Below, piece by piece: positions 41,665 to 64,000 of a stretch of 64,000 bases of DNA (the stretch's first letter is position 1; each line of letters opens with the position of its first letter). This stretch comes from Candidatus Latescibacterota bacterium. GTDB taxonomy: Bacteria; Latescibacterota; UBA2968; GCA-2709665. The position numbers were made by a program, and so were the translations under genes. A model generated the notes under the pieces. The model saw only the letters and a list, made by a program, of their open reading frames with translations. It made no database searches and had not been told where the DNA came from. Location of the stretch: positions 4,832,001 through 4,896,000 of the forward strand of contig OZ250150.1 in assembly GCA_965237675.1 (NCBI GenBank), given 5' to 3'.

Positions 41665-41676
41665 AGTGGAGTGTCG

Positions 41677-43428: not shown

Positions 43429-43548
43429 TCGTACGCATCGGACACAAACCTAAGCCAGCCGTCCCGCTACGGGACGCGGTTACCGGCCAGGACCGATTCC
43501 AGGATATATCCAGGCCTCCGTCAGCGCTCGAATGGAAGGAACTTTGGA

Positions 43549-45480: not shown

Positions 45481-45521
45481 GTTGGGTCACACGCACCGTA
45501 CTCTCAAGAACGGAACCCGAC

Positions 45522-47648: not shown

Positions 47649-47708
47649 GTCCGTTTGCACGCGTGGCGCGCGGATTCCCGCCTATTGGATTTAACGGAGA
47701 AACATCAA

Positions 47709-48611
47709 ATGAACGAATTTCGCGGCATCTACCCCGCGCTGATCACACCGATGACGCGTCAAGGCGACTTTAACGAAGATGCCTTCCGTCGGCTCGTGGA
47801 ATACAATATAAAATCGGGCGCCCACGGTTTCTGGGTTGCCGGCGGCGCCGGTGAAAGCGTTCTGCTGGAAGACGAAGAAAATGCCCGCATTGCCGAAGCC
47901 GCCGCCGACCAGGCCGCCGACCGCGCCAGAATCATCATGCACGTGGGGGCGGCCACCACCGTACGTGCCGCCAGAATGGCCGAGAACGCCGCAAAGGCCG
48001 GGGTTGATGCCATCTGCGCCGTACCTCCCTTCTTCTATCGGACCGGACCGGACGAAATCGCCGAACACTACCGGGTCATCGGCGCAGCGGCAGACCTTCC
48101 CCTGTTCATCTATAACCTTCCAGGCGCCACGGGTGTAGAGATCACCCTCGAATTGGCCGAGAAGATCCGGGAGCACGTACCGCAACTCGCCGGACTGAAA
48201 CATTCCGCTCCGGCATTCGCGAACACGCGCCACTTCACCAGGATGGGCCTTTCGTGCCTCATCGGCAGCGCCGCGCTGCTCCTCCCCGCGCTCACCATTG
48301 GCGCATCAGGCTGCGTGGACGGCCCCCTTTCACTGTCTCCGGATGTGTGGGTTAATATCTGGTCGGCGTACCACGCCGGCGACATTAAGTCTGCCGAAGC
48401 GGAACAGGAACGGGCCGCAGAGCTCTATACGATCTTCAACCGAGCCGGATATATCGCGTCCATGAAGGCCCTGCTATCCGAGAAACTCGGCATCGACTGC
48501 GGCGACCCCCGCCTCCCGCAACGTCCGCTTACCCGCGAGGAGAGAGACTTCGTCATCCGGACGGCGACGGCACTGGGGATGATGGAAATCGATAGTCGGG
48601 ATGGCCGCTGA
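47709..48611 (+). CDS. DHDPS/N-acetylneuraminate lyase family aldolase
   Basis: PALITP, GGAGE, IYNLP, GLKHS. Confidence 0.88.
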   Translation: MNEFRGIYPALITPMTRQGDFNEDAFRRLVEYNIKSGAHGFWVAGGAGESVLLEDEENARIAEAAADQAADRARIIMHVGAATTVRAARMAENAAKAGVDAICAVPPFFYRTGPDEIAEHYRVIGAAADLPLFIYNLPGATGVEITLELAEKIREHVPQLAGLKHSAPAFANTRHFTRMGLSCLIGSAALLLPALTIGASGCVDGPLSLSPDVWVNIWSAYHAGDIKSAEAEQERAAELYTIFNRAGYIASMKALLSEKLGIDCGDPRLPQRPLTREERDFVIRTATALGMMEIDSRDGR

Positions 48612-48688
48612 CCGTTCCGGCCCATGCCGATATCCATTGCCGACGCTTTGTGCGGCACCTTTGAACCCTTTTAACGGAGAACGCCCGT

Positions 48689-49597
48689 ATGATTCCCTTA
48701 CTCAGCAGCCTTTGCTACGGACCGCTTGAAGTCTGCCATCTTCCCAGGACCTGGTGGAAAGTCCTGCTTCGGAACGCGGGCCTGCTCGACGAAGAATACC
48801 CCGACGTCAGCGAAGGCCTGGACAAATCCGTCCTGGAAGTGCTGAACCTGGACAGAGAGACGACCCTGGCGTATTTGCGTGAGAATATGCCCGGCTACCT
48901 CCAGTTCGAAGCCTGGGTCCTCAGACAAAACCACGGAAAGCTCGATCGAAGGGCAATCGATACCTGGAATGAATCCGTGCGCACGCGCGTTCACACCCGG
49001 CCCGATAAGCTGCAGGAAACCACGAGTGACATCGGCATTCCCAACGACGGTACGATCACTTCAGCCGTGATCCTCAACAGCCTCCAGGACTGGTCGCTTT
49101 TCTACAGGCGGGACGTGATGGGGGGATTCGCAACCCTGGGCGGTCGTGTGGTACCCCTCGTCTCCAGCCTGGACTACGGACCACTCAACGTCTGCCAACT
49201 CCCGCGTACCTGGCTGAAGATACTGCTCAGAGCCCGAAATCTGCTTCATCCCGACTATCCCGACATGACCGATAACGGCCTGGATCCCCTGGCGCTGCGC
49301 GCTGTCAACATCCAGCCGCATGACGCCGTTTGTTTCGTCCGGGAAAACGCGCCCTCATATCTTGACTTCGAAGCCTGGATTCTGCGACAGAACGACGGAT
49401 GTGTCGACCCCGGCCCCGTCGACGAATGGAACACATTCGTGCGAACCCGAATCCATTCAAATGAAAAAATCGTGGATATTCACAATACACTCGGCCTGGA
49501 AAACGACGGCAGCCTGACCTCCGCCGTCGTCCTCAATCACGTTGAAGACTGGCACTTCGCGCATGCCGACCTGACGGGCGGGGGCGACAGTTCGTGA
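48689..49597 (+). CDS. Protein with two tandem DUF5069-like domains
   Basis: Internal duplication PL.SSL.YGPL.VC.LPRTW.K ... LTSAV.LN...DW; resembles the DUF5069 LPR..DK motif. Confidence 0.65.
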   Translation: MIPLLSSLCYGPLEVCHLPRTWWKVLLRNAGLLDEEYPDVSEGLDKSVLEVLNLDRETTLAYLRENMPGYLQFEAWVLRQNHGKLDRRAIDTWNESVRTRVHTRPDKLQETTSDIGIPNDGTITSAVILNSLQDWSLFYRRDVMGGFATLGGRVVPLVSSLDYGPLNVCQLPRTWLKILLRARNLLHPDYPDMTDNGLDPLALRAVNIQPHDAVCFVRENAPSYLDFEAWILRQNDGCVDPGPVDEWNTFVRTRIHSNEKIVDIHNTLGLENDGSLTSAVVLNHVEDWHFAHADLTGGGDSS

Positions 49598-49640
49598 ACA
49601 CCGCCCGAAAATCCGGACTCTCTACGAGTCGATTTAATTA

Positions 49641-49669
49641 TTGACATAACGCGAGCCATGGATTAAACT
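49641..49669 (+). promoter_or_regulatory. Near-consensus sigma70 promoter at the start of the WD40 region
   Basis: TTGACA-17 nt-TAAACT with AT-rich upstream GATTTAATTA. Confidence 0.7.
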
Positions 49670-49854
49670 ACCACTAAAGTTACGTATTAGTATACATCTT
49701 CCGTAAATAGAACCGGCGTCGCCGATCTTCCAGGTGCAGCCAGGAGCCCCAACGCCACCCGTGGTCACGCGAAGGCGCCAGGCCCTGAATGAGGCCGCAA
49801 GAGGGGATCCGCTTAGCCTGTGGTTGACGCCATTCTCAAACCCGTTAGCGTTTG

Positions 49855-49946
49855 AAAAGGAGGTGATACCGGAATCCACGTCGCCAAACGTTTTGCCGCT
49901 GTAGATGTACATGAGAAACTGTAGTTCGGGACAAGTGCTGAATTGA
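49855..49946 (+). pseudogene. Leader element copy A: extended SD + degenerate micro-ORF
   Basis: AAAAGGAGGTGATA then CCG-ESTSPNVLPL*MYMRNCSSGQVLN-TGA; start lost and internal TAG, terminal stop at the homologous position. Confidence 0.45.
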
Positions 49947-50390
49947 TACGTTGCGCTGTGTGAGTGATCAAGCGAGGCCGCCGGAAACCGTACATCTGGT
50001 TTCGTCATTTCGCCATCACACCCTCCAGATCAATCCCCAACAGTCCGTTGATAAAGTTGCTCTGCAGGCGGGACTCAGTGTCCCGTCCCGGAACATCGTC
50101 ACCGTTCATCCGGCGATTCACGCCGTCTCGCTCCGTTGCTTGCGCTGTTTGTGCTGAGCCTGTCGAAGGATGCCAGCCGGGCGACTAGGCGGCCGAATTT
50201 CGGCAATCTATTTCCGGGACGGAACACTTGCCAATGTGACCGAAGACAAGGCGTGCGTCCGAGCCGAATCGGTGGATTCGGCGAGGGAGCGCGACAAAGT
50301 AACTCGGCTACAAGAGCCGGTCGCACGACCGGATGGGCATTTTCGATGGGCTGCCAGGTCCCATCAAGCACAGTCTCTTCCTACAGAATC

Positions 50391-50802
50391 TTCACAGTAA
50401 TTCACCCCGTAATCACGTGAATCACAGTCCGTGGTATGGCTGGGCGGCGCGCCCTGCGCCTTAGTCTCAGTCAGTCACGGTAATCACGTGAACCGCAGTC
50501 CGGGGTGTGGTTGTGCGACGTGCCTTCCGCTTTAATCTCCCAGTTAAACACTGTAATCATATGAATCACAGTCCGGGTGTGGTTGGCCGGCGCGCTTTGC
50601 GGTTTAATCACGGTCAATCCCTGCAATCATAGTTAATCACAGTCCGGGTGTGGTTGGCCGGCGTGCCTTTCGGTATAGTCACCGCTAATCCCTGCAATCA
50701 TAGTTAATCACAGTCCGGGGCGGTGGCGGGGAAGTGCGCCCTGCGTTCTTAATCACAGTTCATCCCTGTAATCACAGTTAATCCTAGTCCGGGGGGATTC
50801 AG
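50391..50802 (+). repeat. Tandem array of ~71-nt units (about 5.5 copies) abutting WD40 gene 1
   Basis: Approximate unit TAATCACAGTTAATCCCTGTAATCATAGTTAATCACAGTCCGGGTGTGGTTGGCCGGCGCGCCCTGCGCCT; units start near 50391, 50462, 50533, 50605, 50676, 50750. Confidence 0.85.
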
Positions 50803-52101
50803 ATGAAAGGGTCAACGGTTTCGAGCCTCATTCTTCTTTCTACAGCTGTCTTGTGTGCACAGTTCGCCCACGCGCAGGACTACAATCGCTGGCGCTTGCC
50901 CGAAGGGGCCCTATTGCGGCTGGGCAAGGGAGACGTTCGCGCCGTGGTCTGGTCGCCGGACGGCTCGCGCCTGGCCGTGGGGGGCACCGCCGGCATCTGG
51001 CTCTACGACCCCCTCACCGGGGCCGAAGTTTCACTGATCACGGGCCATACGAGAAGAGTCAATTCAATGGTATATTCGACGGATGGGACGATGCTGGCAA
51101 GCGCCGGTCACGACGGTACGTTGCGGTTGTGGGACGTGGCCACAGGACAGGAAAGGAGCACCATCAAAGCCCATTTCGGGTCCGTCACTTCGGTGGCGTT
51201 TTCGCCGGATGGGATGACGGTGGCAAGCGCTGGTTATGAAGGTCCGGTGCGGTTGTGGGACGTGGCCACAGGGCAGGAGAAAAGCACCCTGGAAGGACAT
51301 ACCAATTGGGTCTTGTCGGTCACGTTTTCGCAGGATGGGACAATGCTGGCAAGCGCCAGTCGTGACAGTACGATGCGGTTGTGGGACGTGGCCACAGGGC
51401 AGGAAAAACACACCCTCACAGGACATTCCGCTGGGGTCAGGTCGGTGGCGTTTTCGCCGGATGGGACGACGCTGGTAAGCGGCAGTTACGACCATATGGT
51501 GCGGTTGTGGGACGCGGCCACAGGGCAGGAAAAACACACCCTCACAGGACATACCGCCGGGGTCTATTCGGTGGCGTTCTCGCCGGATGGGACGACGGTG
51601 GCCAGCGCCGGTCGTGACCGTACGGTGCGGTTGTGGGACGCGGCCACCGGGCAGGAAGAAAGGACCCTCACAGGACATATACGGACTGTCGAGTCGGTGG
51701 CGTTTTCGCCGGATGGTAGGACGCTGGTAAGCGGCAGCCCCTACAACAGGATGCTGCTGTGGGACGTGGACACCTGGCAGGAAAAAGGCGCCCTGACAGG
51801 ACATACGTGGTATCTCGTGACGGTGGCGTTTTCGCCGGATGGGAGGACGCTGGCCAGCGGCAGTTACGACGGCACGATTCTGCTGTGGGATGTGTCGCCG
51901 TATGTCGCACATCCCACGCTTGCCGCAGATTTCGACGGTGACGGGATCGTGGGTTTTCCCGACTTTCTGCGGTTCGCGCCGCAGTTCGGTCAGACCCAGG
52001 GTGATGCCGGATTTGACGCGCGATTCGATCTGGACGGAGACGGTACTGTCGGATTCAGCGATTTTGTGATCTTCGCACGCAGCTTCGGCCTGGGTGGATG
52101 A
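50803..52101 (+). CDS. Secreted WD40 protein (8 repeats) with C-terminal dockerin-like/EF-hand pair
   Basis: Signal peptide ending AHA-QDY; GH...WD 42-aa repeats; DFDGDG..DF twice. Confidence 0.9.
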   Translation: MKGSTVSSLILLSTAVLCAQFAHAQDYNRWRLPEGALLRLGKGDVRAVVWSPDGSRLAVGGTAGIWLYDPLTGAEVSLITGHTRRVNSMVYSTDGTMLASAGHDGTLRLWDVATGQERSTIKAHFGSVTSVAFSPDGMTVASAGYEGPVRLWDVATGQEKSTLEGHTNWVLSVTFSQDGTMLASASRDSTMRLWDVATGQEKHTLTGHSAGVRSVAFSPDGTTLVSGSYDHMVRLWDAATGQEKHTLTGHTAGVYSVAFSPDGTTVASAGRDRTVRLWDAATGQEERTLTGHIRTVESVAFSPDGRTLVSGSPYNRMLLWDVDTWQEKGALTGHTWYLVTVAFSPDGRTLASGSYDGTILLWDVSPYVAHPTLAADFDGDGIVGFPDFLRFAPQFGQTQGDAGFDARFDLDGDGTVGFSDFVIFARSFGLGG

Positions 52102-52264
52102 CACGAAAGCACCATGGCAGAAACTGGTCGCTCAAGGTCTGCATGATTGCCGGGAACCCGCCGCTCGTGCGTGATCGCGGCTCGCCAATGGTACCGTTGG
52201 CGGATATCTGTATTGACATTCTATCGATCTCCTGATAAGACGGCCCCTGAGAAGGAGGTGATAA

Positions 52265-52339
52265 CTGAAATCAACACTGATAAACGTCTGGCAGTCGTAC
52301 GTCTACTTCAATGCGATGACCGGTTGTACAGTTCGTTAA
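52265..52339 (+). CDS. Candidate 24-aa micro-ORF, type II: (M)KSTLINVWQSYVYFNAMTGCTVR
   Basis: GAAGGAGGTGATAA then CTG; same length and stop position as the homologue at 59625. Confidence 0.4.
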   Translation: MKSTLINVWQSYVYFNAMTGCTVR

Positions 52340-52364
52340 CGCCGGTCTACTGCGTGTTCGCGTT

Positions 52365-52478
52365 AGAAAGGTGGTGATATTCGGATCCACGTCGCTAAAC
52401 GTATTGCCGCTGTACATCTACGTGAGAAACTGTGACTCGGGGCAAGTTGCTGCAATGAACCTTGCGCTGTGCAAGTGA
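52365..52478 (+). pseudogene. Leader element copy B2: degenerate type I micro-ORF
   Basis: AAAGGTGGTGATA then TTC-GSTSLNVLPLYIYVRNCDSGQV; start lost; a 1-nt insertion shifts the homologous TGA (52456) out of frame. Confidence 0.4.
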
Positions 52479-52579
52479 TCGAGCGATATATCTGAAATAT
52501 CTTCACAAGGTCTCTACATATCGCCATCACCCTCCAGGTCAATTCCTGAATTCCATCAAGCACAGTCTCTTCATACGTT

Positions 52580-53126
52580 TAATCAAACGTTCCACTCCGT
52601 AACCACGTGAATCCCGGGGCTGAGTGTGAATGGGCGGCGCGCCTTGCGCCACGATTCCGGTCATTCACGCTGCTCTCGTGAATCGACGCCCGGGGTGTGG
52701 CTGCATAGTGTGCCTTGAGCGTAAATCACAGTTAATCATTGGTACCATACGTTTTCCACAGTCCCGGGTGTGGTGGGTCGGCGCGCCCTGCGCCTTCACC
52801 ACAGTCTGTCCCCTGTAATATGTGATTCGCAGTCCGTGTGTGTGGCCGAGCGGCGCGCCCTGCGCCTGATGCCCGGCCAGGTACGGGAATCACGTGAGCC
52901 ACTGTTCGGGGTGTGGTTCGGCGACGTGTCTTCCGCTTCAATTTCCCAGTAGTACAACATAATCACGGGCGTTACGTTCCGGGTACGGCCGAGCGGCGTG
53001 TCTTGCGCTCGATTCCGCCGGCTGATGCCGTTAAATGCGAGAACTACAGTCCCGGGTATGGCAGTGCGGTTTGATTGATGTCAATACGTTCAGTCACAGT
53101 CATTCCTGGTCTGGGAGGGTATCCAG
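52580..53126 (+). repeat. Diverged tandem array of ~71-nt units (about 7.5 copies) abutting WD40 gene 2
   Basis: CCGGG(G)TGTGG...GGCGCGCCCTGCGCC core recurs every 71-73 nt; homologous to the array at 50391. Confidence 0.75.
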
Positions 53127-55178
53127 ATGAAAAGATCTACAATTCTGAGCCTCACTTTTGTATTTACCACCGTCTTATTTTCGGATGAAATCCACGCACA
53201 GGACTACAATCGCTGGAGCCTGCCTGAACGCGCCACGATGCGTCTGGGCAAAGGATACGTGCGCGACGTGGCCTGGTCGCCGGACGGAACGCGCCTGGCG
53301 GTTGGCACGAGCCCCGGCATCTGGCTCTACGATGCCGACACCGGCGCCGAAATTTCCCTGATCACGGGTCATACGGGAAGACTCAATTCGATGGTGTTTT
53401 CGCCGGACGGGACCACACTGGCAAGTGCAGGTCGCGACGGAACGTTGCGATTGTGGGACGTGGCCACCGGGCAGGAAAAAGGCAATATCAGAGCACATCC
53501 GCGGTCTGTCGAAACGGTGGCGTTTTCGCCGGATGGAACGACGCTGGCAAGCGACAGTTACGACGATAAGGTGCGGGTGTGGGACGTGGCCACCGGGCAG
53601 GAGAAAAGCAGCCTGGGGGGACATACGAGGGCTGTCCGTTCGGTGGTGTTTTCTCCGGATGGTCTGACGCTGGCAAGCGCGGGTTACGACAGTACGGTGC
53701 GGATGTGGGACGTGGCCACCGGACAGGAAAAACACATCCTCACAGAACACACGAATCGGGTCAATTCGGTGGTGTTTTCGCCGGATGGCCTGACGCTGGC
53801 AAGCGCCAGTCAGGACAGTACGGTACGGGTGTGGGACGTGGCCACCGGACAGGAAAAACACATCCTCACGGGAGGTACCGGGACGGTCTATTCGGTGACG
53901 TTCTCGCCTGACGGCATGACGCTGGCAAGCGGCTGCGGCGACGATACGGTGCGGCTGTGGGACGTGGCGGCAGGACGGGAGAAGGGCATCCTGGAAGGAC
54001 ATACCGGTTCGGTCATCTCGGTGGCGTTTTCGCCGGACGGGACGACGCTCGCAACCGGCAGTTACGACAGTACGGTGCGTGTGTGGGACGTGGCCACCAG
54101 GCAGGAAAAGCACACCCTCACAGGATATACGTCGCTGGTCAATTCTGTTGCGTTTTCGCCGGATGGGGCGACGCTGGCAAGCGGCATCAGCCGTACGGTG
54201 CGGTTGTGGAACGTGGAAACCGGACAGGAGAAGAGCACCCTTTCAGGACATAAGAATCGCGTCAGGTCGGTGGCGTATTCTCCGGATGGTCAGTCCCTGG
54301 CCAGTGGCGGCGATGATCGTACGGTGCGGGTCTGGGACGTCGCCACGGGGCAAGAAAAACACATCCTCACTGGAGACACCGGCCGCGTCTATTCGATCGT
54401 GTTTTCTCCGGACGGTCAGTTCTTGGCCAGTGGCGGCGATGATCGTACGGTGCGGATTTGGGACGTAGCTACGGGGGAGGAAGAACAAACCCTTACGGGA
54501 CATACCCAATGGGTCTTGTCGGTGGCGTTTTCTCCGGATGGGAAGATGCTGGCAAGTGGCAGTTGGGACGGTGCCGTTCTGCTGTGGGACGTGGCCACCG
54601 GCCAGCAGATAGACATCCTCACGGGACATACCCGTCCGGTCTGGTCACTGTCGTTTACGCTGGATGGGACAACGCTGGCAAGCGCCAGTTCTGACCGTAC
54701 GGTTCGGGTGTGGGACGTGGCCACCGGGCAGGAGATAAGCAGCCTGGAAGGACATAAGTTATTTGTCCGATCCGTGGCGTTTTCGCCAGATGGGACGACC
54801 CTTGCAAGCGGTAGCGACGACGGTACAGTTCGGGTGTGGGGCGTGGCCGCGGGGCAGGAAATAGGCGTCCTCGCTGGACATACCGATATTGTCTATTCGG
54901 TGGCGTTTTCGCCGGACGGGACGACCCTTGCAAGCGGCAGTAACGACGGCACGATTCTGCTGTGGGATGTGTCTCAGTATGTCGCACCTCAACCCCTTGT
55001 TACGGACTTCGATGGCGACGGAACCGTGGCTTTTCCCGACTTTCTGCAGTTCGCGGCGCAGTTCGGGCAAAGCCAGGGGAATGTGGGGTTTGATACCCGA
55101 TTCGATCTGGACGACGACGGTACCGTCGGGTTCAGCGATTTCGTTATCTTCGCACGCAGCTTCGGCCAGGGTGGATGA
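53127..55178 (+). CDS. Secreted WD40 protein (14 repeats) with dockerin-like/EF-hand pair
   Basis: Signal peptide; 14 FSPDG-type repeats; DFDGDG tail. Confidence 0.9.
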   Translation: MKRSTILSLTFVFTTVLFSDEIHAQDYNRWSLPERATMRLGKGYVRDVAWSPDGTRLAVGTSPGIWLYDADTGAEISLITGHTGRLNSMVFSPDGTTLASAGRDGTLRLWDVATGQEKGNIRAHPRSVETVAFSPDGTTLASDSYDDKVRVWDVATGQEKSSLGGHTRAVRSVVFSPDGLTLASAGYDSTVRMWDVATGQEKHILTEHTNRVNSVVFSPDGLTLASASQDSTVRVWDVATGQEKHILTGGTGTVYSVTFSPDGMTLASGCGDDTVRLWDVAAGREKGILEGHTGSVISVAFSPDGTTLATGSYDSTVRVWDVATRQEKHTLTGYTSLVNSVAFSPDGATLASGISRTVRLWNVETGQEKSTLSGHKNRVRSVAYSPDGQSLASGGDDRTVRVWDVATGQEKHILTGDTGRVYSIVFSPDGQFLASGGDDRTVRIWDVATGEEEQTLTGHTQWVLSVAFSPDGKMLASGSWDGAVLLWDVATGQQIDILTGHTRPVWSLSFTLDGTTLASASSDRTVRVWDVATGQEISSLEGHKLFVRSVAFSPDGTTLASGSDDGTVRVWGVAAGQEIGVLAGHTDIVYSVAFSPDGTTLASGSNDGTILLWDVSQYVAPQPLVTDFDGDGTVAFPDFLQFAAQFGQSQGNVGFDTRFDLDDDGTVGFSDFVIFARSFGQGG

Positions 55179-55366
55179 GGCGGCGCACGGTCGGTGCCTC
55201 CCACTTGCCGATTTTGTTACCGTTGGGGAAACACGATGCGGAAGCAGTTGGAGTGCAAGAAGAGGGACACCAGGGCTAAGCGGGAGAGCAATGCCGCCTA
55301 ACGACGTCCACAAAGTCTCTCCATGCTGTTTAATCGGAGTTTATCGCAGTCAGGGAGGGCATTCAG

Positions 55367-56960
55367 ATGAAAAGGTCTACGATTTCGAGCGTGATTTTTG
55401 TTTTGACGGCTGTCTTGTTCGCCCAGGACAGCCGCGCACAGGAGTACAATCGCTGGCGCTTGCCCGAAGGCGCCATTATGCGTCTGGGCAAAGGATACGT
55501 GTGGGACGTGGCCTGGTCGCCGGATCGCACGCGCCTGGCCGTCGGGGGCACCGTCGGCATCTGGGTCTACGATGCCAGCACCGGAGCGGAAGTTTCCCTG
55601 ATCACCGGACATTCCTTCAGAGTCAATGCGGTTGCATTTTCACCCGATGGTCTGACGCTGGCAAGCGGCAGTCGGGACCATACGGTGCGGTTGTGGGACG
55701 TGGCCACCGGAGAGGAAAAAAGCATCCTCACGGGACACAGGTACGACGTCGAGGCGGTGGCATTTTCGCCGGATGGGACAATGCTGGCAAGCGGCAGTCG
55801 CGACGGCACGGGTGTGGGACGTGGCCACAGGCCAGCAAAAACACAGGCTTATCAATGAAAAGTACCCGGATAGGTTGATTAATCCATGGGTCAGGGCGGT
55901 GGCATTCTCGCCGGATGGTCTGACACTGGCCAGCGCCGGAAACGACTCTACGGTGCGGGTGTGGGACGTGGAAACGGGACGGGAAAAGAGCACCCTGGAT
56001 GAACATACCCATTGGGTGTATTCGGTGGCGTTTTCTCCCGATGGGTTGACGCTGGCAAGCGCCAGCCGGGACAGTACCGTGCGGGTGTGGGACGTGGACA
56101 CAGGGCAGGAGAAGAGTACCCTCATAGGACATACGTCCGGCGTCCGATCGGTTGTGTATTCGCAGGATGGGGTGACGCTGGCAACCCGCAGTTTCGACAC
56201 CTCCGCGCGGGCGTGGACGGTGCGGGAGTGGGATTTGGAAACGGGGCGGGAGCAAAGCACCCTCACCCTCACAGGGCATACGTGGTCTGCCAATTCGGTC
56301 GTGTATTCGCCGGATGGGACAATGCTGGCAAGCGGCAGTAACGATCGTACGGTGCGGTTGTGGGACGTGGCCACAGGGCAGCATATACGCACCTTCGCAG
56401 GACATACCCGTGGGGTCGGTCCGGTGGCGTTTTCGCCGGATGGGACAACTGTGGCAGGCGGTGGCGGCTATCGGGACGCAACGGTGCGGTTGTGGGACGT
56501 GGCCACAGGGCAGGAGAAACACACCCTCACAGTACGTGGAGAGAATTTCTTTTCGGTGGCGTTTTCGCCGGATGGCATGACGCTGGCAACCAGCAGTCCG
56601 TACAAGGCGGTTTGGCTGTGGGACGTGGCCACAGGGAGAAACATACGCGCCCTCAAAGGACATACCGATCCAATCTGGTCGGTAGCGTTTTCGCCGGACG
56701 GCAGGACGCTGGCAAGCGCCAGCTACGACTGCACGATTCTGCTATGGGATGTCTCCTCACGTGACGCGTTGCAACCTCTTGCTGCCGACTTCGACGGCGA
56801 CGGGGTCGTGGGCTTTTCCGATTACCTGCAATTCGTCGCGAAGTACGGGCTGCGCTGGGGAGATCCGGGATATGACGCGCGCTTCGATCTGGACGGGGAC
56901 GGTGAAATCGGGTCCCGCGATTGGTGGATCTTCGGGAAAAGCTTCGGCCGGGGTACCTGA
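55367..56960 (+). pseudogene. Frameshifted secreted WD40 protein (10 repeats) with dockerin-like tail
   Basis: Split into ORFs 55367-55858 and 55773-56960; 5-nt deletion at ~55810 (CACGGGTGTGG versus paralogue CACGGTGCGGGTGTGG). Confidence 0.85.
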
Positions 56961-57008
56961 GGCGAACGAACGGTGTCGGAAACAGGTTGCGCCCAGTCCA
57001 AAAAAGGC

Positions 57009-57038
57009 CGGGAATCCACCCCCTACGGCGGGTTCCCG
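57009..57038 (+). other. Hairpin downstream of WD40 gene 3
   Basis: CGGGAATCC...GGGTTCCCG; homologous hairpin at 59508-59541; no U-tract. Confidence 0.5.
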
Positions 57039-57047
57039 CGATGAGAG

Positions 57048-57076
57048 TTGATGCCTTGACGGACATCTGTTATAAC
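57048..57076 (+). promoter_or_regulatory. Sigma70-like promoter upstream of micro-ORF D
   Basis: TTGATG-17 nt-TATAAC with extended TG motif. Confidence 0.55.
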
Positions 57077-57122
57077 ACCCCATCGATCACCCGATTTGAC
57101 CGCGTCTGTGAAGGAGGTGATA

Positions 57123-57200
57123 TTGGAATCAACGTCGAGAAAAGTCAGGCCGCGGTATGTTTACGTGAGAAGCTATGGCTCGGGGCAAGTGCCGAAATGA
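57123..57200 (+). CDS. Candidate 25-aa micro-ORF, type I: (M)ESTSRKVRPRYVYVRSYGSGQVPK
   Basis: AAGGAGGTGATA then TTG; stop at the same position in homologues. Confidence 0.45.
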   Translation: MESTSRKVRPRYVYVRSYGSGQVPK

Positions 57201-57384
57201 CACGACGCGCAATGGGAGCAGTCCCACGTCGCCGTCGATCAATGCACACAACGTCTCTTCATATCTACATCACTCGCTTCAAGTCACAAAAAAAGGGTCA
57301 CATCAATCACAGTCTCATCACGCGATTAATTCACAGTTAATCCCTGTGATCATAAGTTAATCGCTGTACGAGGAGGATTTACAA

Positions 57385-59460
57385 ATGAAAAGATCTGCGA
57401 TTTTGAGCCTCACTCTTATTTTGACCGCTAGCCTGTATGTACAGAACAGCCACGCGCAGGACTACAATCGCTGGAGTCTGCCCGAAGGCGCCCGCATGCG
57501 TCTGGGCAAAGGAAACGTGCTCGACGTGGCCTGGTCGCCGGACGGCACGCTCCTGGCCGCGGGGGGCACTGCCGGCATCTGGGTCTACGATGCCCACACC
57601 GGCGCGGAAATTTCCCTGATCACAGGACATTCGTTCAGAGTCAATGCGGTTGCGTTTTCACCCGATGGTCTGACGCTGGCAAGTGGCAGTCGGGATGATA
57701 CGGTGCGGTTGTGGGACGTGGAAACGGGACAGGAAAAGAGCATCCTCACGGGACATAGGTACGACGTCGAGGCGGTGGCATTCTCGCAGGATGGAACGAC
57801 GCTGGCAAGCGGCAGTCGCGACGGCACGGTGCGGGTGTGGGACGTGGCCACCGGGCAGGAAAAACATACCCTCCTGAATGAAAAGTACCGGGGATTGCTG
57901 AATAAGCCCTGGGTGTATTCGGTTGCGTTTTCGGCCGATGGTCTGACGCTGGCAAGCGCCAATCGGGACAGTACCGTGCGGGTGTGGGACATCGCCACCG
58001 GACAGGAAAAGCATACGCTCACCGGACACACCCATCGGGTCTGGTCGGTGGCGTTTTCGCCCGACGGTAAGACACTTGCCAGTGCAAGTCTGGACAGTAC
58101 GGTGCGGCTGTGGGACCTGGAAACGGGGCAGGAAAAGAGCACCCTCGAAGGACATACTCATCGGGTGTATTCGGTGGCTTTTTCGCCCGATGGTCTGACG
58201 CTGGCAAGCGCCGGTCGGGACAGTACCGTGCGGGTGTGGGACGTGGCCACCGGGCAGGAGAAACACACCCTCACAGGACATACTCATCGGGTGTATTCCG
58301 TGGTGTTTTCGCAGGACGGGATGATGCTGGCAAGCCGCAGTTACGACAATACGGTCCGGACATGGGACGTGGAAACGGGGCAGGAGAGTAGCATCCTACG
58401 CCTTACAGGGCATACACAATCTGTAAACTCGCTGGCGTTCTCGCCGGACGGGCAGACCCTTGCAAGCAGCGGTAACGACCCCGGCATCCGGTTGTGGGAC
58501 GTGGCCACAGGACAGGTAAAAAGCACTTTCGCAGGACATGGGTCGGTGGCGTTCTCGCCGGATGGGACCACGCTGGCAACCGCCGGCGGCCGGGACGGAC
58601 CGATGCGGTTATGGGACGCGGCCACAGGACAGGAGAAACACACCCTCACAGGACATACGTCACCTGTAGAGTCGGTGGCGTTCTCGCCGGATGGGACCAC
58701 GCTGGCAAGCGCCGACGGTCACGACGAAACGGTGCGGTTGTGGAACGTGACCACAGGGAAGGAGAGACACACCCTCGTAGGACATATTGATAGAGTTGGG
58801 ACGGTGGCGTATTCGCCGGATGGATCGACGCTCGCAAGCGCTGGTGGAGACAGCACGGTGCGGTTGTGGAACCCAGCCACAGGGCAAGAGAAAAACACGC
58901 TCACAGTACATGCCTATTGGATCCACGAGTTGGCGTTTTCGCCCGATGGGGCGACGCTTGCAGGCTCCGATTCTCGGGGTACGTTGCGGTTGTGGGACGC
59001 GGCCACAGGGCAGGAGAAAAACACCCTCACAGTACGTGGCGAGAATTTCTTCTCGGTGGCGTTTTCGCCCGATGGGACGACACTGGCAACCAGCAGTCCG
59101 TACAGGGCGGTATGGCTGTGGGACGTGGCCACCGGGCAGAATATACGCGCCCTCAGAGGACATACAGCTCCGATCTGGTCGGTGGCGTTTTCACCGGACC
59201 GCAGAACGCTGGCAAGCGCCAGTTACGACGGTACGATTCTGCTGTGGGATGTCTCGTCACGTGACGCGCTGCAACCCCTTGCCGCCGACTATGATGGCGA
59301 CGGAACCGTGGGCTTTTCCGACTTTCTGCAATTCGTCGCGAAGTACGGGCTGAGCTGGGGAGATGCGGGATATGACGCGCGCTTCGACCTGGACGGGGAC
59401 GGTGAAATCGGGTCCCGCGATTGGTGGATCTTCGGGAAAAGCTTTGGCCGGGGTAACTGA
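57385..59460 (+). CDS. Secreted WD40 protein (14 repeats) with dockerin-like/EF-hand pair
   Basis: Signal peptide; 14 repeats; DYDGDG/DLDGDG tail. Confidence 0.9.
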   Translation: MKRSAILSLTLILTASLYVQNSHAQDYNRWSLPEGARMRLGKGNVLDVAWSPDGTLLAAGGTAGIWVYDAHTGAEISLITGHSFRVNAVAFSPDGLTLASGSRDDTVRLWDVETGQEKSILTGHRYDVEAVAFSQDGTTLASGSRDGTVRVWDVATGQEKHTLLNEKYRGLLNKPWVYSVAFSADGLTLASANRDSTVRVWDIATGQEKHTLTGHTHRVWSVAFSPDGKTLASASLDSTVRLWDLETGQEKSTLEGHTHRVYSVAFSPDGLTLASAGRDSTVRVWDVATGQEKHTLTGHTHRVYSVVFSQDGMMLASRSYDNTVRTWDVETGQESSILRLTGHTQSVNSLAFSPDGQTLASSGNDPGIRLWDVATGQVKSTFAGHGSVAFSPDGTTLATAGGRDGPMRLWDAATGQEKHTLTGHTSPVESVAFSPDGTTLASADGHDETVRLWNVTTGKERHTLVGHIDRVGTVAYSPDGSTLASAGGDSTVRLWNPATGQEKNTLTVHAYWIHELAFSPDGATLAGSDSRGTLRLWDAATGQEKNTLTVRGENFFSVAFSPDGTTLATSSPYRAVWLWDVATGQNIRALRGHTAPIWSVAFSPDRRTLASASYDGTILLWDVSSRDALQPLAADYDGDGTVGFSDFLQFVAKYGLSWGDAGYDARFDLDGDGEIGSRDWWIFGKSFGRGN

Positions 59461-59507
59461 AGCGAACAAACGGTGTAGGAAACAGGTAGCGCAAGTTCTG
59501 CATTAAG

Positions 59508-59541
59508 GCGGGGAACCCATCCCATTGGTCGGGTTCTCCGC
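59508..59541 (+). other. Hairpin downstream of WD40 gene 4
   Basis: GCGGGGAACCC...GGGTTCTCCGC, 11-bp stem. Confidence 0.55.
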
Positions 59542-59624
59542 ATGAGAGTCAAAGCCTTGACCGACCTCTGTTTTGACATTCCGTCGTTCAACCAATCTGG
59601 CCGCGTCTGGAAAGGAGGTGATAA

Positions 59625-59699
59625 CTGGCATCCACGCTGATAAACCTCTGGGCGTCGTACGGCTATTTTAACGCGATGATCTCCTGCACAAGTGGCTAA
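59625..59699 (+). CDS. Candidate 24-aa micro-ORF, type II: (M)ASTLINLWASYGYFNAMISCTSG
   Basis: AAAGGAGGTGATAA then CTG; 16/24 residues identical to the copy at 52265, no indels. Confidence 0.4.
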   Translation: MASTLINLWASYGYFNAMISCTSG

Positions 59700-59740
59700 T
59701 ACCGGCCACGGATCTGATCGCATTCTGAAAGGAGGTGATA

Positions 59741-59818
59741 TTGGAATCAACGTCGAGAAAAGTCAGACCGTGGTATGTTTACGTGAGTAGCTATGGCTCG
59801 GGGCAGGTGCCGAAATGA
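59741..59818 (+). CDS. Candidate 25-aa micro-ORF, type I: (M)ESTSRKVRPWYVYVSSYGSGQVPK
   Basis: AAAGGAGGTGATA then TTG; near-identical to the copy at 57123. Confidence 0.45.
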   Translation: MESTSRKVRPWYVYVSSYGSGQVPK

Positions 59819-59980
59819 CACGACGCGCAATTGGAGGGGTCGCACGTTGCCGTCGATCAATACACACAACGTCTCTCCATATCTAAATCAATCGCCTCAA
59901 GTCACAAAGAGTGTCACATCAGTCAGAGTCTCATCACGCGATTAATTCATAGTTAATCGCTGCACGGGGAGGATTTACAA

Positions 59981-60919
59981 ATGAAAAAGCGAACGATATT
60001 TGGCACCCTCATTCTGTTGACGGCCGTCTTGATCGCCCAGGACAGCCTCGCGCAGGATTATAATCGCTGGAATCTGCCCCAAGGAGCCCGCATGCGTCTG
60101 GGCAAGGGAAACGTGCTCGACTTGGCCTGGTCGCCGGACCGCACGCGCCTGGCCGCGGGGGGCACCGCCGGCATCTGGCTCTACGATGCCCACACCGGCG
60201 CGGAAATTTCCCTGATCACTGGACATTCGTTCAGGGTCAATGCGGTTGCGTTTTCGCCCGATGGTCTGACGCTGGCAAGTGGCAGTCAGGACGATACGGT
60301 GCGGTTGTGGGACGTGGCCACCGGAGAGGAGAAAAGCATCCTTACGGGACACAGGTACGACGTCGAGGCGGTGGCATTCTCGCATGATGGGACATTGCTG
60401 GCAAGCGGCAGTCGCGACGGCACGGTGCGGGTGTGGGACGTGGCCACAGGGCAGGAAAAAAGTACCCTCGTCAATGAAAAGTACCAGGGTAGGTTTAATA
60501 ACCCCTGGGTCGTGTCGGTTGCGTATTCGCAGGACGGGATAAGCCGCAGCTTCGACAATGCGGTGCGACAGTGGGACGTGGAAACCGGGCTGGAGACGGG
60601 CACCCTCAGACTTCCAGGGCATACCTCCGCCGTCCAGTCGGTTGTGTATTCGCCGGACGGGAAGATGCTGGCAAGCGGCGGTAGCGACGGTACGATTCTG
60701 CTGTGGGATGTCTCGTCACGTGCCGCGCTGCAACCCCTTGCTGCCGATTTCGATGGCGACGGGACCGTGGGCTTTACCGACTTTCTGCAATTCGCCGCGA
60801 AGTTCGGGCTGAACTGGGGAGATGCGGGATATGACTCCCGCTTTGATCTGGACAACGACGGGGATATCGGGTATCCCGATTGGTCCATCTTGCGAAAAAG
60901 CTTTGGCCGGGGTTCCTGA
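59981..60919 (+). CDS. Short secreted WD40 protein (5 repeats) with dockerin-like tail
   Basis: Looks like an internally deleted version of 57385-59460. Confidence 0.85.
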   Translation: MKKRTIFGTLILLTAVLIAQDSLAQDYNRWNLPQGARMRLGKGNVLDLAWSPDRTRLAAGGTAGIWLYDAHTGAEISLITGHSFRVNAVAFSPDGLTLASGSQDDTVRLWDVATGEEKSILTGHRYDVEAVAFSHDGTLLASGSRDGTVRVWDVATGQEKSTLVNEKYQGRFNNPWVVSVAYSQDGISRSFDNAVRQWDVETGLETGTLRLPGHTSAVQSVVYSPDGKMLASGGSDGTILLWDVSSRAALQPLAADFDGDGTVGFTDFLQFAAKFGLNWGDAGYDSRFDLDNDGDIGYPDWSILRKSFGRGS

Positions 60920-61083
60920 AGCGAACAAACCGTGTCGGAAACCGGTCGCGCCAATTATCTCCACGAATCCATCACTCGGTGCAGGTCGTCAACAGACTCA
61001 CATCAATCACTGTCTTTTCGGGCCGTTAAATCATAGTTAATCCCTCGTAATCAAAGTTTATCATAGACAGGGAGGGCATTCAG

Positions 61084-63270
61084 ATGAAAAGGTCAACGAT
61101 TTTCGGCCTCATTCTTCTCTCGACATCTTTCTTGCTTGCACAGGACTCCCTCGCACAGGATTACACTCGCTGGGGACTGCCCGAAGGGGCCCTCATGCGT
61201 CTGGGCAAAGGAGACGTGCGCGCGGTGGTCTGGTCGCCGGACGGCACGCGCCTGGCGGTGGGCAGCAGCCTCGGCATCTGGCTCTACGATCCGCGCACCG
61301 GGGCCGAAGTTTCCCTGATTACGGGCCAGATGTCCATAGTCGGGCCGGTGGTGTTTTCGCCGGATGGGTCGACCCTGGCAAGCAACGGTGCGGACAATAC
61401 GGTGCGGTTGTGGGACGTGGCAACCGGGCAGGAAAAACATATGCTCACAGGACATACGGATAGGGTTCAGTCGGTGGTGATTTCACCGGACGGGATGACG
61501 CTGGCAAGCAGCGGTTCGGACAATACGGTGCGGTTGTGGGACGTGGCCACGGGGCAGGAAAAACACACGCTTACAGGACATACCCGTGGGGTCGGCCCAG
61601 TGGCGTTTTCGCCGGATGGGATCACGCTGGCAAGCGGCAGTAGCGACCATACGGTGCGGTTGTGGGACGTGGCCACAGGCCAGGAAAAACACACCCTCAC
61701 AGGACATACCTGGTTTGTCATTTCGATGGCGTTTTCGCCGGATGGGACCACGCTGGCAAGCGGCAGTTACGACCATACGGTGCGGTTGTGGGACGTGGCC
61801 ACAGGCAACGCAAAGGCAACCCTCGAAGGCCATACGGATTTTGTTACACCGCTGGTGTTTTCTCCGGATGGTCAGACTCTGGCCAGTGCAGCTCAAGGTC
61901 GGGGTAATGACCAAACGGTACGGTTGTGGAACGTGGCCAGCGGCCGGGAAAGACACACCCTCATTGGACATACTGAAACTGTCAACTCGGTGGTGTTTTC
62001 ACCGGATGGGCTGACGCTGGCAAGCGGCAGTCGTGACGATACGGTACGGTTGTGGGACGTGGCCACAGGGCAGGAAAAAATCACCCTCACAGGACATACC
62101 GGTAATGTCGGCTCCGTGGTGTTTTCGCCGGATGGGACCACGCTGGCAAGCGGCAGCAGAAACGATGCGGTGCGGTTGTGGGACGCGGCCACCGGCGAGG
62201 AAAAAAACGTCTTCACCGGACATTCGCCTTTGATCAATTCGGTGGCGTATTCGCCGGATGGGACGACCCTGGCCAGCGGCGGTAATGACCGTACGTTGCT
62301 GTTGTGGGACATCGCTACGGCACAGGTAAGACACACCCTCACTGGACATACCAGTACTGTTGTTGCTTCCGTGGCATTTTCACCGGATGGGACGACGCTG
62401 GCAAGCGGCAGTTGGGACAAAACGGTACGTTTGTGGGACGTGGCCGAGGCGCAGGAGAATATCACCCTGACGGAACATACGAATAGGGTCCAATCGGTGG
62501 CGTTTTCGCCGGATGGGACGACCCTGGCCAGCGGGAGTTGGGACCATACGGTGCGGTTGTGGGACGTGGCAAGCGGCCGGGAAAGACACACCCTCACAGA
62601 ACATACCGATGTCGCCACTTCGGTGGTGTTTTCACCTGACGGGATGACGTTGGCAAGCGGAAGTCGGGACCATACGGTGCGGTTGTGGGACGTGACCACG
62701 GGAGAGATAAGATCCACCCTGACGGGACATTCCCACTGGGTCAATCCGGTGGCGTTATCGCCGGATGGGACGATGCTGGCAAGCGGCGGCCCGGACAATA
62801 CGTTGCTGTTGTGGGACGTGGCTACCGGGCAGGTGAGACACACCCTCGCTGGACATACCTTCTTCGTCGACTCCGTGGCGTTTTCGCCGGATGGGACGAC
62901 GCTGGCAAGCGGCGGCTCGGACAGTACGGTGCGGTTGTGGGACGTGGCCACGGGAGAGGAGAAAGGCATCCTGCCAAGTGGGGCCAAGTCGGTGGTGTTT
63001 TCACCGGACGGGAGGACCCTTGCCAGCGGCAGTTACGACGGCGCGATTCTGTTGTGGGATATATCGCCGTATGTCGCGCCTCCAACCCTTGCTGCCGACT
63101 TCGACGGCGACGGGACCGTGGGTTTTCCAGACTTTCTGCAATTCGCGGCGCAAGTCGGGCTGAGCCAAAGCGATGCCGGGTATGACGCGCGCTTCGATCT
63201 GAACGGCGACGATACCGTCGGGTTCAGCGATTTCGTGATCTTTGCACGCAGCTTCGGTCAAAGTGCATGA
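61084..63270 (+). CDS. Secreted WD40 protein (15 repeats) with dockerin-like/EF-hand pair
   Basis: Signal peptide; 15 repeats; DFDGDG tail. Confidence 0.9.
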   Translation: MKRSTIFGLILLSTSFLLAQDSLAQDYTRWGLPEGALMRLGKGDVRAVVWSPDGTRLAVGSSLGIWLYDPRTGAEVSLITGQMSIVGPVVFSPDGSTLASNGADNTVRLWDVATGQEKHMLTGHTDRVQSVVISPDGMTLASSGSDNTVRLWDVATGQEKHTLTGHTRGVGPVAFSPDGITLASGSSDHTVRLWDVATGQEKHTLTGHTWFVISMAFSPDGTTLASGSYDHTVRLWDVATGNAKATLEGHTDFVTPLVFSPDGQTLASAAQGRGNDQTVRLWNVASGRERHTLIGHTETVNSVVFSPDGLTLASGSRDDTVRLWDVATGQEKITLTGHTGNVGSVVFSPDGTTLASGSRNDAVRLWDAATGEEKNVFTGHSPLINSVAYSPDGTTLASGGNDRTLLLWDIATAQVRHTLTGHTSTVVASVAFSPDGTTLASGSWDKTVRLWDVAEAQENITLTEHTNRVQSVAFSPDGTTLASGSWDHTVRLWDVASGRERHTLTEHTDVATSVVFSPDGMTLASGSRDHTVRLWDVTTGEIRSTLTGHSHWVNPVALSPDGTMLASGGPDNTLLLWDVATGQVRHTLAGHTFFVDSVAFSPDGTTLASGGSDSTVRLWDVATGEEKGILPSGAKSVVFSPDGRTLASGSYDGAILLWDISPYVAPPTLAADFDGDGTVGFPDFLQFAAQVGLSQSDAGYDARFDLNGDDTVGFSDFVIFARSFGQSA

Positions 63271-63356
63271 GGCGACGGCGCCTTGCCAGAAAGAGGTCGC
63301 GCCAGGCGATCGGCCGCGCAAGCGGTTTGCGTTTCTCACGGACCAAACTGACTTCG

Positions 63357-63604
63357 GAAAGGAGGTGATATTGGAATCCATGTCGTTAAGTGTCGGACCG
63401 CAGTACATCTACGTGAGAAACTACGGCCCGGGGCAAGTGCTGAACGGCAAGTTGCGCAATGGGAGCGGTCGAGCAATGCCGCCGACCAACGTACACCAGG
63501 TCTCTTCATTTCGCCTTCACTCGCTCAGGTCATTTCAAGAATCACATCAATCACAGTCTCTCCATTTGGGTTTAATCACAGTCCATCATCGTAATCATAG
63601 TTAA
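63357..63604 (+). other. Leader element copy G: extended SD + type I micro-ORF with lost stop
   Basis: GAAAGGAGGTGATA then TTG(63371)-ESMSLSVGPQYIYVRNYGPGQVLN; GGC replaces the homologous TGA and the frame reads on to 63604. Confidence 0.45.
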
Positions 63605-63636
63605 TCACAGTCAATCTTAGTCCGGGGGGTATTCAG

Positions 63637-64000
63637 ATGATCAAGTTAACGTTTTCGAGCCTCATTCTTCTTTTTGCTTCATTCCTGTTTGCACACGACA
63701 GCCGCGCACAGGATTACCTTCGCTGGGGGCTACCCGAAGGGGCCCTCTTGCGGCTGGGCAAGGGAGACGTGCGCGCCGTGGCCTGGTCGCCGGACGGCAC
63801 GCGTCTGGCCGTGGGGGGCACCGCCGGCATCTGGCTCTACGACCCCCTCACCGGGGCCGAAGTTTCCTTGCTCACGGGTCATACGAGGAGAGTCAATCTG
63901 GTGGTGTATTCGCCGGATGGGACGATGCTGGCAAGCGCCGGTCACGACGGTACGTTGCGGTTGTGGGACGTTGCTATGGGAAAGGAAATAAGCACCATCA
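63637..64000 (+). CDS. Secreted WD40 protein, 3' truncated by window (closest to gene 1)
   Basis: MIKLTFSSLILLFASFLFAHDSRAQDYLRWGLPEGALLRLGKG...; missing from the ORF track because no stop is reached. Confidence 0.85.
   Translation, partial: MIKLTFSSLILLFASFLFAHDSRAQDYLRWGLPEGALLRLGKGDVRAVAWSPDGTRLAVGGTAGIWLYDPLTGAEVSLLTGHTRRVNLVVYSPDGTMLASAGHDGTLRLWDVAMGKEISTI

Follow-up and report, generated by a model that had tools for sequence, protein, structure and literature searches.

Introduction

The closest described precedents for the leader analyzed here are the STAB-SD (SD, Shine-Dalgarno sequence) of cry3Aa in Bacillus thuringiensis (PMC12970973) and upstream open reading frames (uORFs) that act as roadblocks to RNase E (PMC9943677), both as presented in the accessible parts of these papers. 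In E. coli, a ribosome on a uORF has been reported to impede RNase E scanning in proportion to SD strength and nearly independently of uORF length, with a stronger effect when the ribosome is frozen at initiation (PMC9943677, accessible part). Our subject is a window of 64,000 nt, i.e., the whole stretch of DNA analyzed, from Candidatus Latescibacterota bacterium (UBA2968; GCA-2709665; assembly GCA_965237675.1, contig OZ250150.1, positions 4,832,001-4,896,000 of the forward strand). It closes with seven co-oriented genes for secreted-looking WD40 proteins, most of which are preceded by a leader carrying an extended SD of 12 nt, AAAGGAGGTGAT. Coordinates are window positions unless marked G000, the host genome, or L.

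Like the STAB-SD, the SD described here is strong and lies in an untranslated leader, distant from the start codon of the gene (~160-280 nt ahead of the WD40 start codon, ~0.9 kb in the first cassettes, and 110-130 nt ahead of the dockerin-like gene with which the locus closes in some relatives). With regard to a start codon of its own, it is equally strong in the 42 copies without NTG, and 50 of 72 copies have no ATG, GTG or TTG 3-13 nt after the SD core; near-cognate starts are possible. The array differs from the STAB-SD in that the SD is repeated before most genes of a recombining locus, often in tandem, in that RNase J was not found in the host, and in being known from sequence only. The likeness to the uORF roadblocks is that the host carries RNase E/G and that the effect reported there follows SD strength and not the length or sequence of the uORF, in agreement with what selection preserves in the leader. 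However, the roadblocks described in the accessible part of that source are engineered reporters with start codons, whereas the site here is natural and most of its copies lack a canonical start (PMC9943677).

The proteins and their arrangement also have described counterparts. As far as the available text goes, the HNWD genes het-D, het-E and het-R of Podospora share with the array WD40 repeats that are 42 residues long, closely similar to one another, variable at positions 7, 9, 25 and 27 and shuffled by recombination (PMC2873952); the array differs in being bacterial, in its signal-peptide-like start and dockerin-like end, in having no NACHT/effector domain and in forming one tandem cluster. 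The cip-cel operon is likewise a long operon that encodes secreted proteins with dockerins and has regulatory spacers between its genes (PMC4423207, accessible part), but there stem-loops set levels through selective RNA processing and stabilization, whereas the hairpins of the array show no covariation and the conserved part is the SD. Highly repetitive prokaryotic WD40 proteins (PMC5587647) and the WD40 eukaryotic-like proteins of sponge Latescibacterota (PMC12993501) represent the same protein class and phylum, respectively, but the accessible portions of these two papers mention neither tandem arrays nor leaders. Highly repetitive bacterial WD40 proteins, sponge Latescibacterota WD40 proteins and spacer-tuned dockerin operons are already known, and the array is a new combination of known kinds; no description of the array or its leader was found in a literature search that left most subscription papers outside.

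Results and discussion

The whole array comprises 11 WD40/dockerin-like genes and an orphan leader. As the original prediction had proposed, the spacers ahead of the seven WD40 genes in the window are homologous and ordered, the full leader precedes genes 1, 2, 4, 5 and 7 with mere 3' remnants ahead of genes 3 and 6, and the duplicated unit consists of leader plus gene. The order in the spacers is an upstream segment (100 nt or 168 nt, with a hairpin in the long form), one or two elements of ~116 nt, a linker, the C-rich segment B, a TAATCAC block made of 10-bp repeats and the real ribosome-binding site (RBS). The elements fall into two paralogous types, a and b, and each begins with AAAGGAGGTGAT.

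This 12-mer is complementary to the host's own 16S tail at every position (12/12) and is the best conserved one of the leader. In tree-based step counts over 31 compact cassettes, among which related and paralogous copies are not independent, it required 17 parsimony steps, compared to 49.5 expected for base-matched leader columns (0 of 20000 draws were as low). Expressed per column, the SD changed 1.4 times, compared to 3.0-4.6 times in the rest of the leader, 4.1 in the real RBS, 2.1 at second codon positions and 5.9 at signal peptide and fourfold sites; the leader is thus not decaying neutrally, an outcome that would have counted against the original prediction. Within the 12-mer, G positions changed 1-3 times and A positions 6-10 times, as would be expected for pairing. 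This conservation is not a bias of the search, since a profile lacking the SD columns recovered the same 72 bodies, 67 of which carry a strong SD.

The calculated pairing energy is -17.8 kcal/mol in the 30 copies with an NTG codon and -17.6 in the 42 copies without one, compared to -11.4 for the WD40 RBS; 4800 long ORFs have a median of -7.8. Of the 42 non-coding sites on the chromosome that reach -17 or stronger, nine belong to the array. A separate group of strong sites is found at G000:C1 276690-277411 on the minus strand, where three tandem ORFs of 67-68 codons are each preceded by an extra-strong SD.

Orthologous first copies of the element have a mean identity of 84%, compared to 67% at fourfold sites of the two flanking genes, and were the more similar in 91 of 91 genome pairs (these pairs are not independent). 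Because the step counts are lowest in the SD while internal bodies barely exceed fourfold identity, purifying selection, judged from these comparisons, acts strongly on the SD and mildly on the body.

We propose that the SD is a start-independent ribosome-capture site that shields the downstream mRNA from RNase E/G or Rho, a reading to which we would assign a probability of roughly 40%. A single locus of secreted WD40 binders expands and collapses, presumably by unequal recombination between near-identical repeats, copying gene and leader together; the dynamics are seen in the genomes compared. The array is probably transcribed from a single promoter at 49641. The extended SD would capture a 30S subunit or a weakly initiating ribosome, whichever codon comes next, and the bound ribosome would be a roadblock that keeps post-cleavage scanning by RNase E/G, or the loading of Rho, away from the untranslated C-rich stretch downstream and the gene behind it. 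The short ORFs would be by-products. Cassettes without the element would differ in mRNA level, and recombination could therefore also retune expression. RNase E/G, Rho and two RNase Y genes were found in the genome; CsrA was not.

Several observations weigh against ribosome capture. RNase J is the 5' exonuclease that is blocked in the Bacillus STAB-SD cases, and it was not found in the host with TIGR00649 and PF17770 (the G000 genome is 99.9% complete). The element is dispensable, since 22 of 63 WD40 starts lack it. Internal bodies are only 69% identical, compared to 66% at fourfold sites, with the bodies ahead in 58% of 465 pairs. The model does not explain why near-invariant bases are scattered over the body, why indels are few or why a and b stand in tandem pairs, and for both element types the consensus retains TTG followed by 24-25 open codons. 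Moreover, the relatives and paralogs on which the comparisons rest are not independent.

Short open reading frames in the elements

Of the alternatives, the one that survives best, although we consider it unlikely, is that the SD drives real uORF initiation at TTG/CTG or at a near-cognate AUC, and that translation rather than the peptide controls read-through into the WD40 gene, similar to Rho-dependent attenuators. The consensus frame just mentioned would fit such initiation, as would the 38 of 72 copies that have their stop at codons 24-27, and AUC or AUU is found six bases past the SD in 52 of 72 copies, with the AUC frame staying open over 11 or more codons in 70 of 72. Extended SDs have also been reported to support non-canonical starts in S. 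aureus (PMC13009471, accessible part), the segment downstream of the element is C-rich (C/G 1.8), and Rho is encoded in the genome. However, the presence of a start codon and ORF length are uncoupled (13/30 vs 14/42, p = 0.46), ORF lengths range from 4 to >100 codons, and in the AUC frame neither the number of stop gains (3 vs 9.7 expected, p = 0.10) nor the synonymous share, which equals the null, argues clearly for translation.

The elements had originally been read as micro-ORFs of 24-25 codons, which does not hold across the copies. In the window, four of seven have TTG/CTG plus 24-25 codons, and the others show CCG with an internal stop, a TTC start or 77 codons. Over all 72 copies the start-codon position is occupied by TTG (21), TCG (15), TTC (10), CTG (8), CCG (4) and others, and an NTG start followed by 22-27 codons occurs in 13. 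The ratio of nonsynonymous to synonymous differences (pN/pS) was 0.75 for type b and 0.89 for type a, compared to 0.83 in column-shuffled nulls, while mature WD40 N-termini, used as a control, gave 0.32 vs a null of 0.90; stops occurred in 18 of 71 elements vs 0 of 64 signal peptides. No coding signal was found in the three plus frames, by pairwise or tree-based analysis, or in the three minus frames, relative to the shuffled null. As signal peptides also did not beat the null, this test is weak for fast-evolving peptides. Leader-peptide attenuators of the trpL/tnaC type have a conserved start codon, frame and regulatory residues, and type I toxin-antitoxin systems a conserved short hydrophobic peptide and an SD sequestered in a stable fold; the former features were not found across the 72 copies, nor were the latter found in the leader.

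Protein binding, passenger DNA and RNA structure

A sequence-specific protein might instead recognize the element, as DNA or as RNA, or the element might be an internal promoter, in both cases with an incidental or secondary 16S-tail match; we regard this as improbable. Such a role could account for the near-invariant single bases in the body, for the TTGACA that 9 of 18 long upstream segments carry ~30 nt ahead of the SD and for the 10-bp phasing of the TAATCAC repeats. The most conserved block is, however, precisely the 12/12 complement of the 16S tail; among the 145 hexamers of its segment TTGACA ranks only 24th, it lacks a good -10, and CsrA was not found in the genome.

Less probable still is the explanation that the spacers are passengers, i.e., decaying old gene starts and dispersed repeats that are copied with the genes and homogenized by conversion. 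Internal bodies near fourfold-site identity and the frequent loss of the element could be read in this way, as could the scatter of the 3' part of the leader. A profile search of the genome recovered 13 copies of the SD element, all within the array, plus one decayed copy ahead of another truncated WD40 gene, which agrees with the predicted confinement to the array; this confinement does not extend to the 3' part. Segment B has about ten further good genomic matches, four of them ahead of WD40 or other secreted-looking genes and several without a co-oriented gene downstream, and TAATCACAGT occurs 44 times in the genome, 15 times inside the array. On its minus strand, B has 23 bases in common with the RBS-plus-start region of another secreted-gene family and may therefore be an old inverted gene start. 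Members of that family are secreted-looking proteins of ~700-750 aa with an HExxH motif (G000:C1 about 337085, 342712, 346210 and 3125066). The conserved SD block and the identity of the first copies, above that of fourfold sites in every genome pair, both speak against passengers.

The chance that the SD instead pairs with the C/U-rich segment B ~150 nt downstream, switching the accessibility of the WD40 RBS, appears small. SD and B do pair in most single-sequence folds (which cover 12 of 13 leaders), and cognate duplexes are slightly stronger than non-cognate ones (-14.6 vs -14.0 kcal/mol, permutation p = 0.04, 21 pairs). Shuffled B, however, gives -12.6 +/- 2.8, the motif in B looks like the RBS and gene start of the other family on the reverse strand, and compensatory changes are lacking. 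RNAalifold on 42 copies of b plus B found three pairs, none compensatory, with a consensus energy of about 0. The folding energies of a, b plus B and the upstream segments match those of shuffles (mean z +0.2 to +0.3), and neither mutual information nor consensus folding of these three parts gave a supported structure. In the upstream hairpin, each pair is kept in ~12-17 of 18 copies and double changes are almost absent. As Rfam also yielded no match at E <= 5, the structured leader RNA that had been predicted finds no support.

It is very improbable that the functional product is an antisense RNA with a 16S-tail mimic or a small minus-strand gene starting in B: an SD-like motif plus ATG is found on the minus strand in 30 of 48 b copies, and a 124-codon frame is open in the first copy of the window, but the minus strand has no coding signal and many stops, and no minus-strand sigma-70 match in the spacers rises above background. 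This 124-codon frame, which carries an SD-like motif and lies over the first leader (49634-50008), is also open in G017 and broken in most other genomes. The proposal that the micro-ORFs encode peptides, as regulators or as cognate ligands of the propellers, is more improbable still, since the four intact copies of seven in the window are set against 13 of 72 overall, no coding signal (in a test that is weak for fast-evolving peptides), uncoupled start and length, and only a weak correlation of leader with gene (Mantel r 0.21).

Organization of the array

The SD sites in the window are located at 49856, 52251, 52367, 57110, 59611, 59728 and 63358 (n=7), upstream of genes 1, 2, 4, 5 and 7 and doubled upstream of genes 2 and 5. 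The features below, as far as gene 7, are on the plus strand, apart from the inserted repeats, which have no assigned strand. At the head of the array, a sigma-70-type promoter, TTGACA-17-TAAACT (49641-49669), is the best match (10/12) within 49500-64000 and unique there, and its layout is shared by 14 of 14 genomes. An imperfect palindrome ending in GTATTAG (49667-49691) lies over the likely transcription start, with GTATTAG found in 14 of 14 first spacers; it is a possible candidate operator or repressor site. The arms of this palindrome covary in some genomes (AATACC..GGTATT vs AATACG..CGTATT). A hairpin followed by a promoter-like segment had been predicted for the spacers in general; the strong hairpin occurs in spacers 2, 4 and 5 only and the good promoter match at 49641 only, so that the pair is not a feature of every spacer.

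The first copy of the element is of type b (49856-49947), with the extended SD at 49856-49867 and a body that has CCG instead of a start codon and an internal stop. The segment B that follows is interrupted at 50041-50353 by dispersed repeats resembling miniature inverted-repeat transposable elements or repetitive extragenic palindromes, which are foreign to the leader, lie in the first cassette and have >100 blastn matches across the chromosome. Within this insertion at least three kinds of short dispersed repeat are nested, each with tens of copies chromosome-wide. The TAATCAC block is expanded to a 71-bp minisatellite in the first two cassettes; in the first, 5.4 copies grown out of the TAATCACAGT block occupy 50405-50793. 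Gene 1 (50803-52101) encodes 432 aa with a signal-peptide-like N-terminus, an 8-bladed propeller and a dockerin-like end.

Ahead of gene 2 (53127-55178, 683 aa), elements a (SD 52251-52262) and b (SD 52367-52378, with the variant GGTGG) stand in tandem at 52251-52458, followed by C-rich segment B (52480-52577) and a decayed minisatellite as far as the RBS. A remnant spacer without SD element (55179-55366) precedes gene 3 (55367-56960), which is frameshifted near 55810. The hairpin of the long upstream segment at 57008-57040, with no compensatory changes over 18 copies, is followed by element b (SD 57110-57121, in this copy with TTG plus 25 codons) and segment B (57110-57324) and by gene 4 (57385-59460, 691 aa). 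The next long upstream segment contains an 11-bp hairpin, read from the sequence, at 59508-59541, and tandem elements a (SD 59611-59622) and b (SD 59728-59739) with segment B (59611-59940) then lead to gene 5 (59981-60919, 312 aa), in which the repeat tract is short. The remnant spacer at 60920-61083 retains only segment B and the TAATCAC block and precedes gene 6 (61084-63270, 728 aa). Element b (SD 63358-63369), segment B and the TAATCAC block (63358-63615) precede gene 7 (63637-64000, 682 aa), which continues beyond the window end.

Beyond gene 7 follow four further genes, a transposase pair that splits gene 9, and the orphan leader after the last gene. On L001, the transposase pair lies inside gene 9 at window +70000 to +71477, and gene 11 is separated from the orphan leader by a fragment of a response regulator at +76621 to +77292; both are named from their sequences. 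Upstream of the array, a conserved cluster at 41671-49597 encodes two heparinase II/III-like proteins, a DHDPS-family gene and a duplicated DUF5069-like gene, and the flanking part is present in 13 relatives. For an integron cassette array an integron integrase would be expected, and none was found in G000 above the TIGR02249 cut-off. Three parts of the array (52061-53077, 55150-55563 and 60694-61420) were recovered with 0-1 differences in contigs from four public runs, which represent at most 3 samples and 2 studies; array joints in public contigs were set aside as short-sided and repeat-driven.

Distribution among relatives

Within the genus, 13 of the 14 other genomes contain the leader; 7 further genomes from the family yielded none, and 31 genomes from another family a single weak match (G022, E 0.0025), without SD or WD40 context. 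Relatives carrying the element are mostly labelled Candidatus Latescibacterota and some Gemmatimonadota. A pattern search of genome contigs gave 17 matches, four of them in unrelated taxa, and an exact-pattern scan of metagenome contigs gave none.

In all 13 relatives the leader is located at the same locus, after the DUF5069-like gene, while the number of WD40 genes varies from none or a remnant up to 11 or more, and the element lies upstream of 41 of 63 WD40 starts. The leader is not exclusive to WD40 genes, since in six relatives a type-a copy lies directly ahead of an unrelated dockerin-like gene of ~392 aa. The protein encoded by the latter (L049:10511-11686; orthologs in G006, G007, G008, G010, G014 and G016) has glycine-rich repeats and the same dockerin-like end, with no Pfam family above cut-off; its gene ends the locus in those relatives, while the G000 locus lacks it. 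G006, G007 and G011 were considered as cases in which the element persists independently of WD40 genes. This was rejected; because G006 and G007 have WD40 remnants and G011 a pre-gene minisatellite, they look like collapsed arrays. In two collapsed arrays, WD40 remnants are fused to downstream parts.

Similarities between leaders and between genes correlate weakly, as the Mantel coefficient given above indicates, and the nearest neighbour is in the same genome for only 14 of 31 cassettes by leader and 9 of 31 by gene. Together, these results point to shuffling and to old or exchanged lineages. The first leader copies of G013 and G008, and of G017 and G010, are 99% identical, compared to 72-74% at flanking fourfold sites, which hints at leader exchange between species.

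WD40 proteins and the dockerin-like module

The array proteins have a signal-peptide-like start, 42-residue WD40 repeats and a C-terminal EF-hand/dockerin-like module of 62 residues, which together fill the genes; no NACHT or N-terminal effector domain was found. Gene 1 was modelled as an eight-bladed propeller with 32 strands (mean predicted local distance difference test score 79), and the C-terminal module was not resolved in this single-sequence model. The best PDB match of the module is the cellulosomal dockerin 2y3n_B (E 8e-11 over the full module), with calmodulins close behind; Pfam Dockerin_1 scored 18.4 and 20.8 bits, under the cut-off of 22.9. By a pattern count, 61 ORFs of the genome end in such a module, and cohesins gave six matches above cut-off in five ORFs. 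A predicted complex of cohesin and module scored 0.02, with one of the five cohesin ORFs and the cohesin modelled without alignment.

Among 36 distinct repeats selected by a strict pattern, which represent a subset of the array and in which the pattern fixes many core residues, positions 6, 7, 9, 18, 25 and 27 have an entropy of 2.5-3.2 bits and a pN 1.5-1.7x the pooled pS, a crude estimate near saturation. In the Podospora HNWD propellers, positions 7, 9, 25 and 27, on the top face, are reported to be positively selected (PMC2873952, accessible part). Variability at these same positions supports the interpretation of the WD40 array as a diversifying binder repertoire. Of the predicted repertoire of binding proteins under a leader RNA or leader peptide, the propellers thus look as proposed, and the RNA fold and the peptide do not.

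Conclusions

Taken together, the locus may be similar to an adaptive receptor system in which every copy of a secreted, hypervariable WD40 binder comes with its own modular ribosome trap that needs no start codon; a ribosome parked there would determine how well the cassette mRNA survives RNase E/G or Rho, and gain, doubling or loss of the trap would retune display, in a host without RNase J. We consider this wider picture, drawn from genome comparison, tentative and on balance doubtful.

If ribosome capture is correct, the array would provide a natural, many-copy case of selection on an SD without a protein to make, in a lineage without RNase J, although generality is limited by the restriction of the leader to one genus. 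The 72 natural variants, with and without a start codon and single or in tandem, would make it possible to test a parked ribosome for protection of mRNA against RNase E or Rho. The array would also represent a bacterial parallel of the fungal HNWD receptors, secreted rather than cytoplasmic, and may offer a handle on the ligands of the WD40 eukaryotic-like proteins of Latescibacterota.

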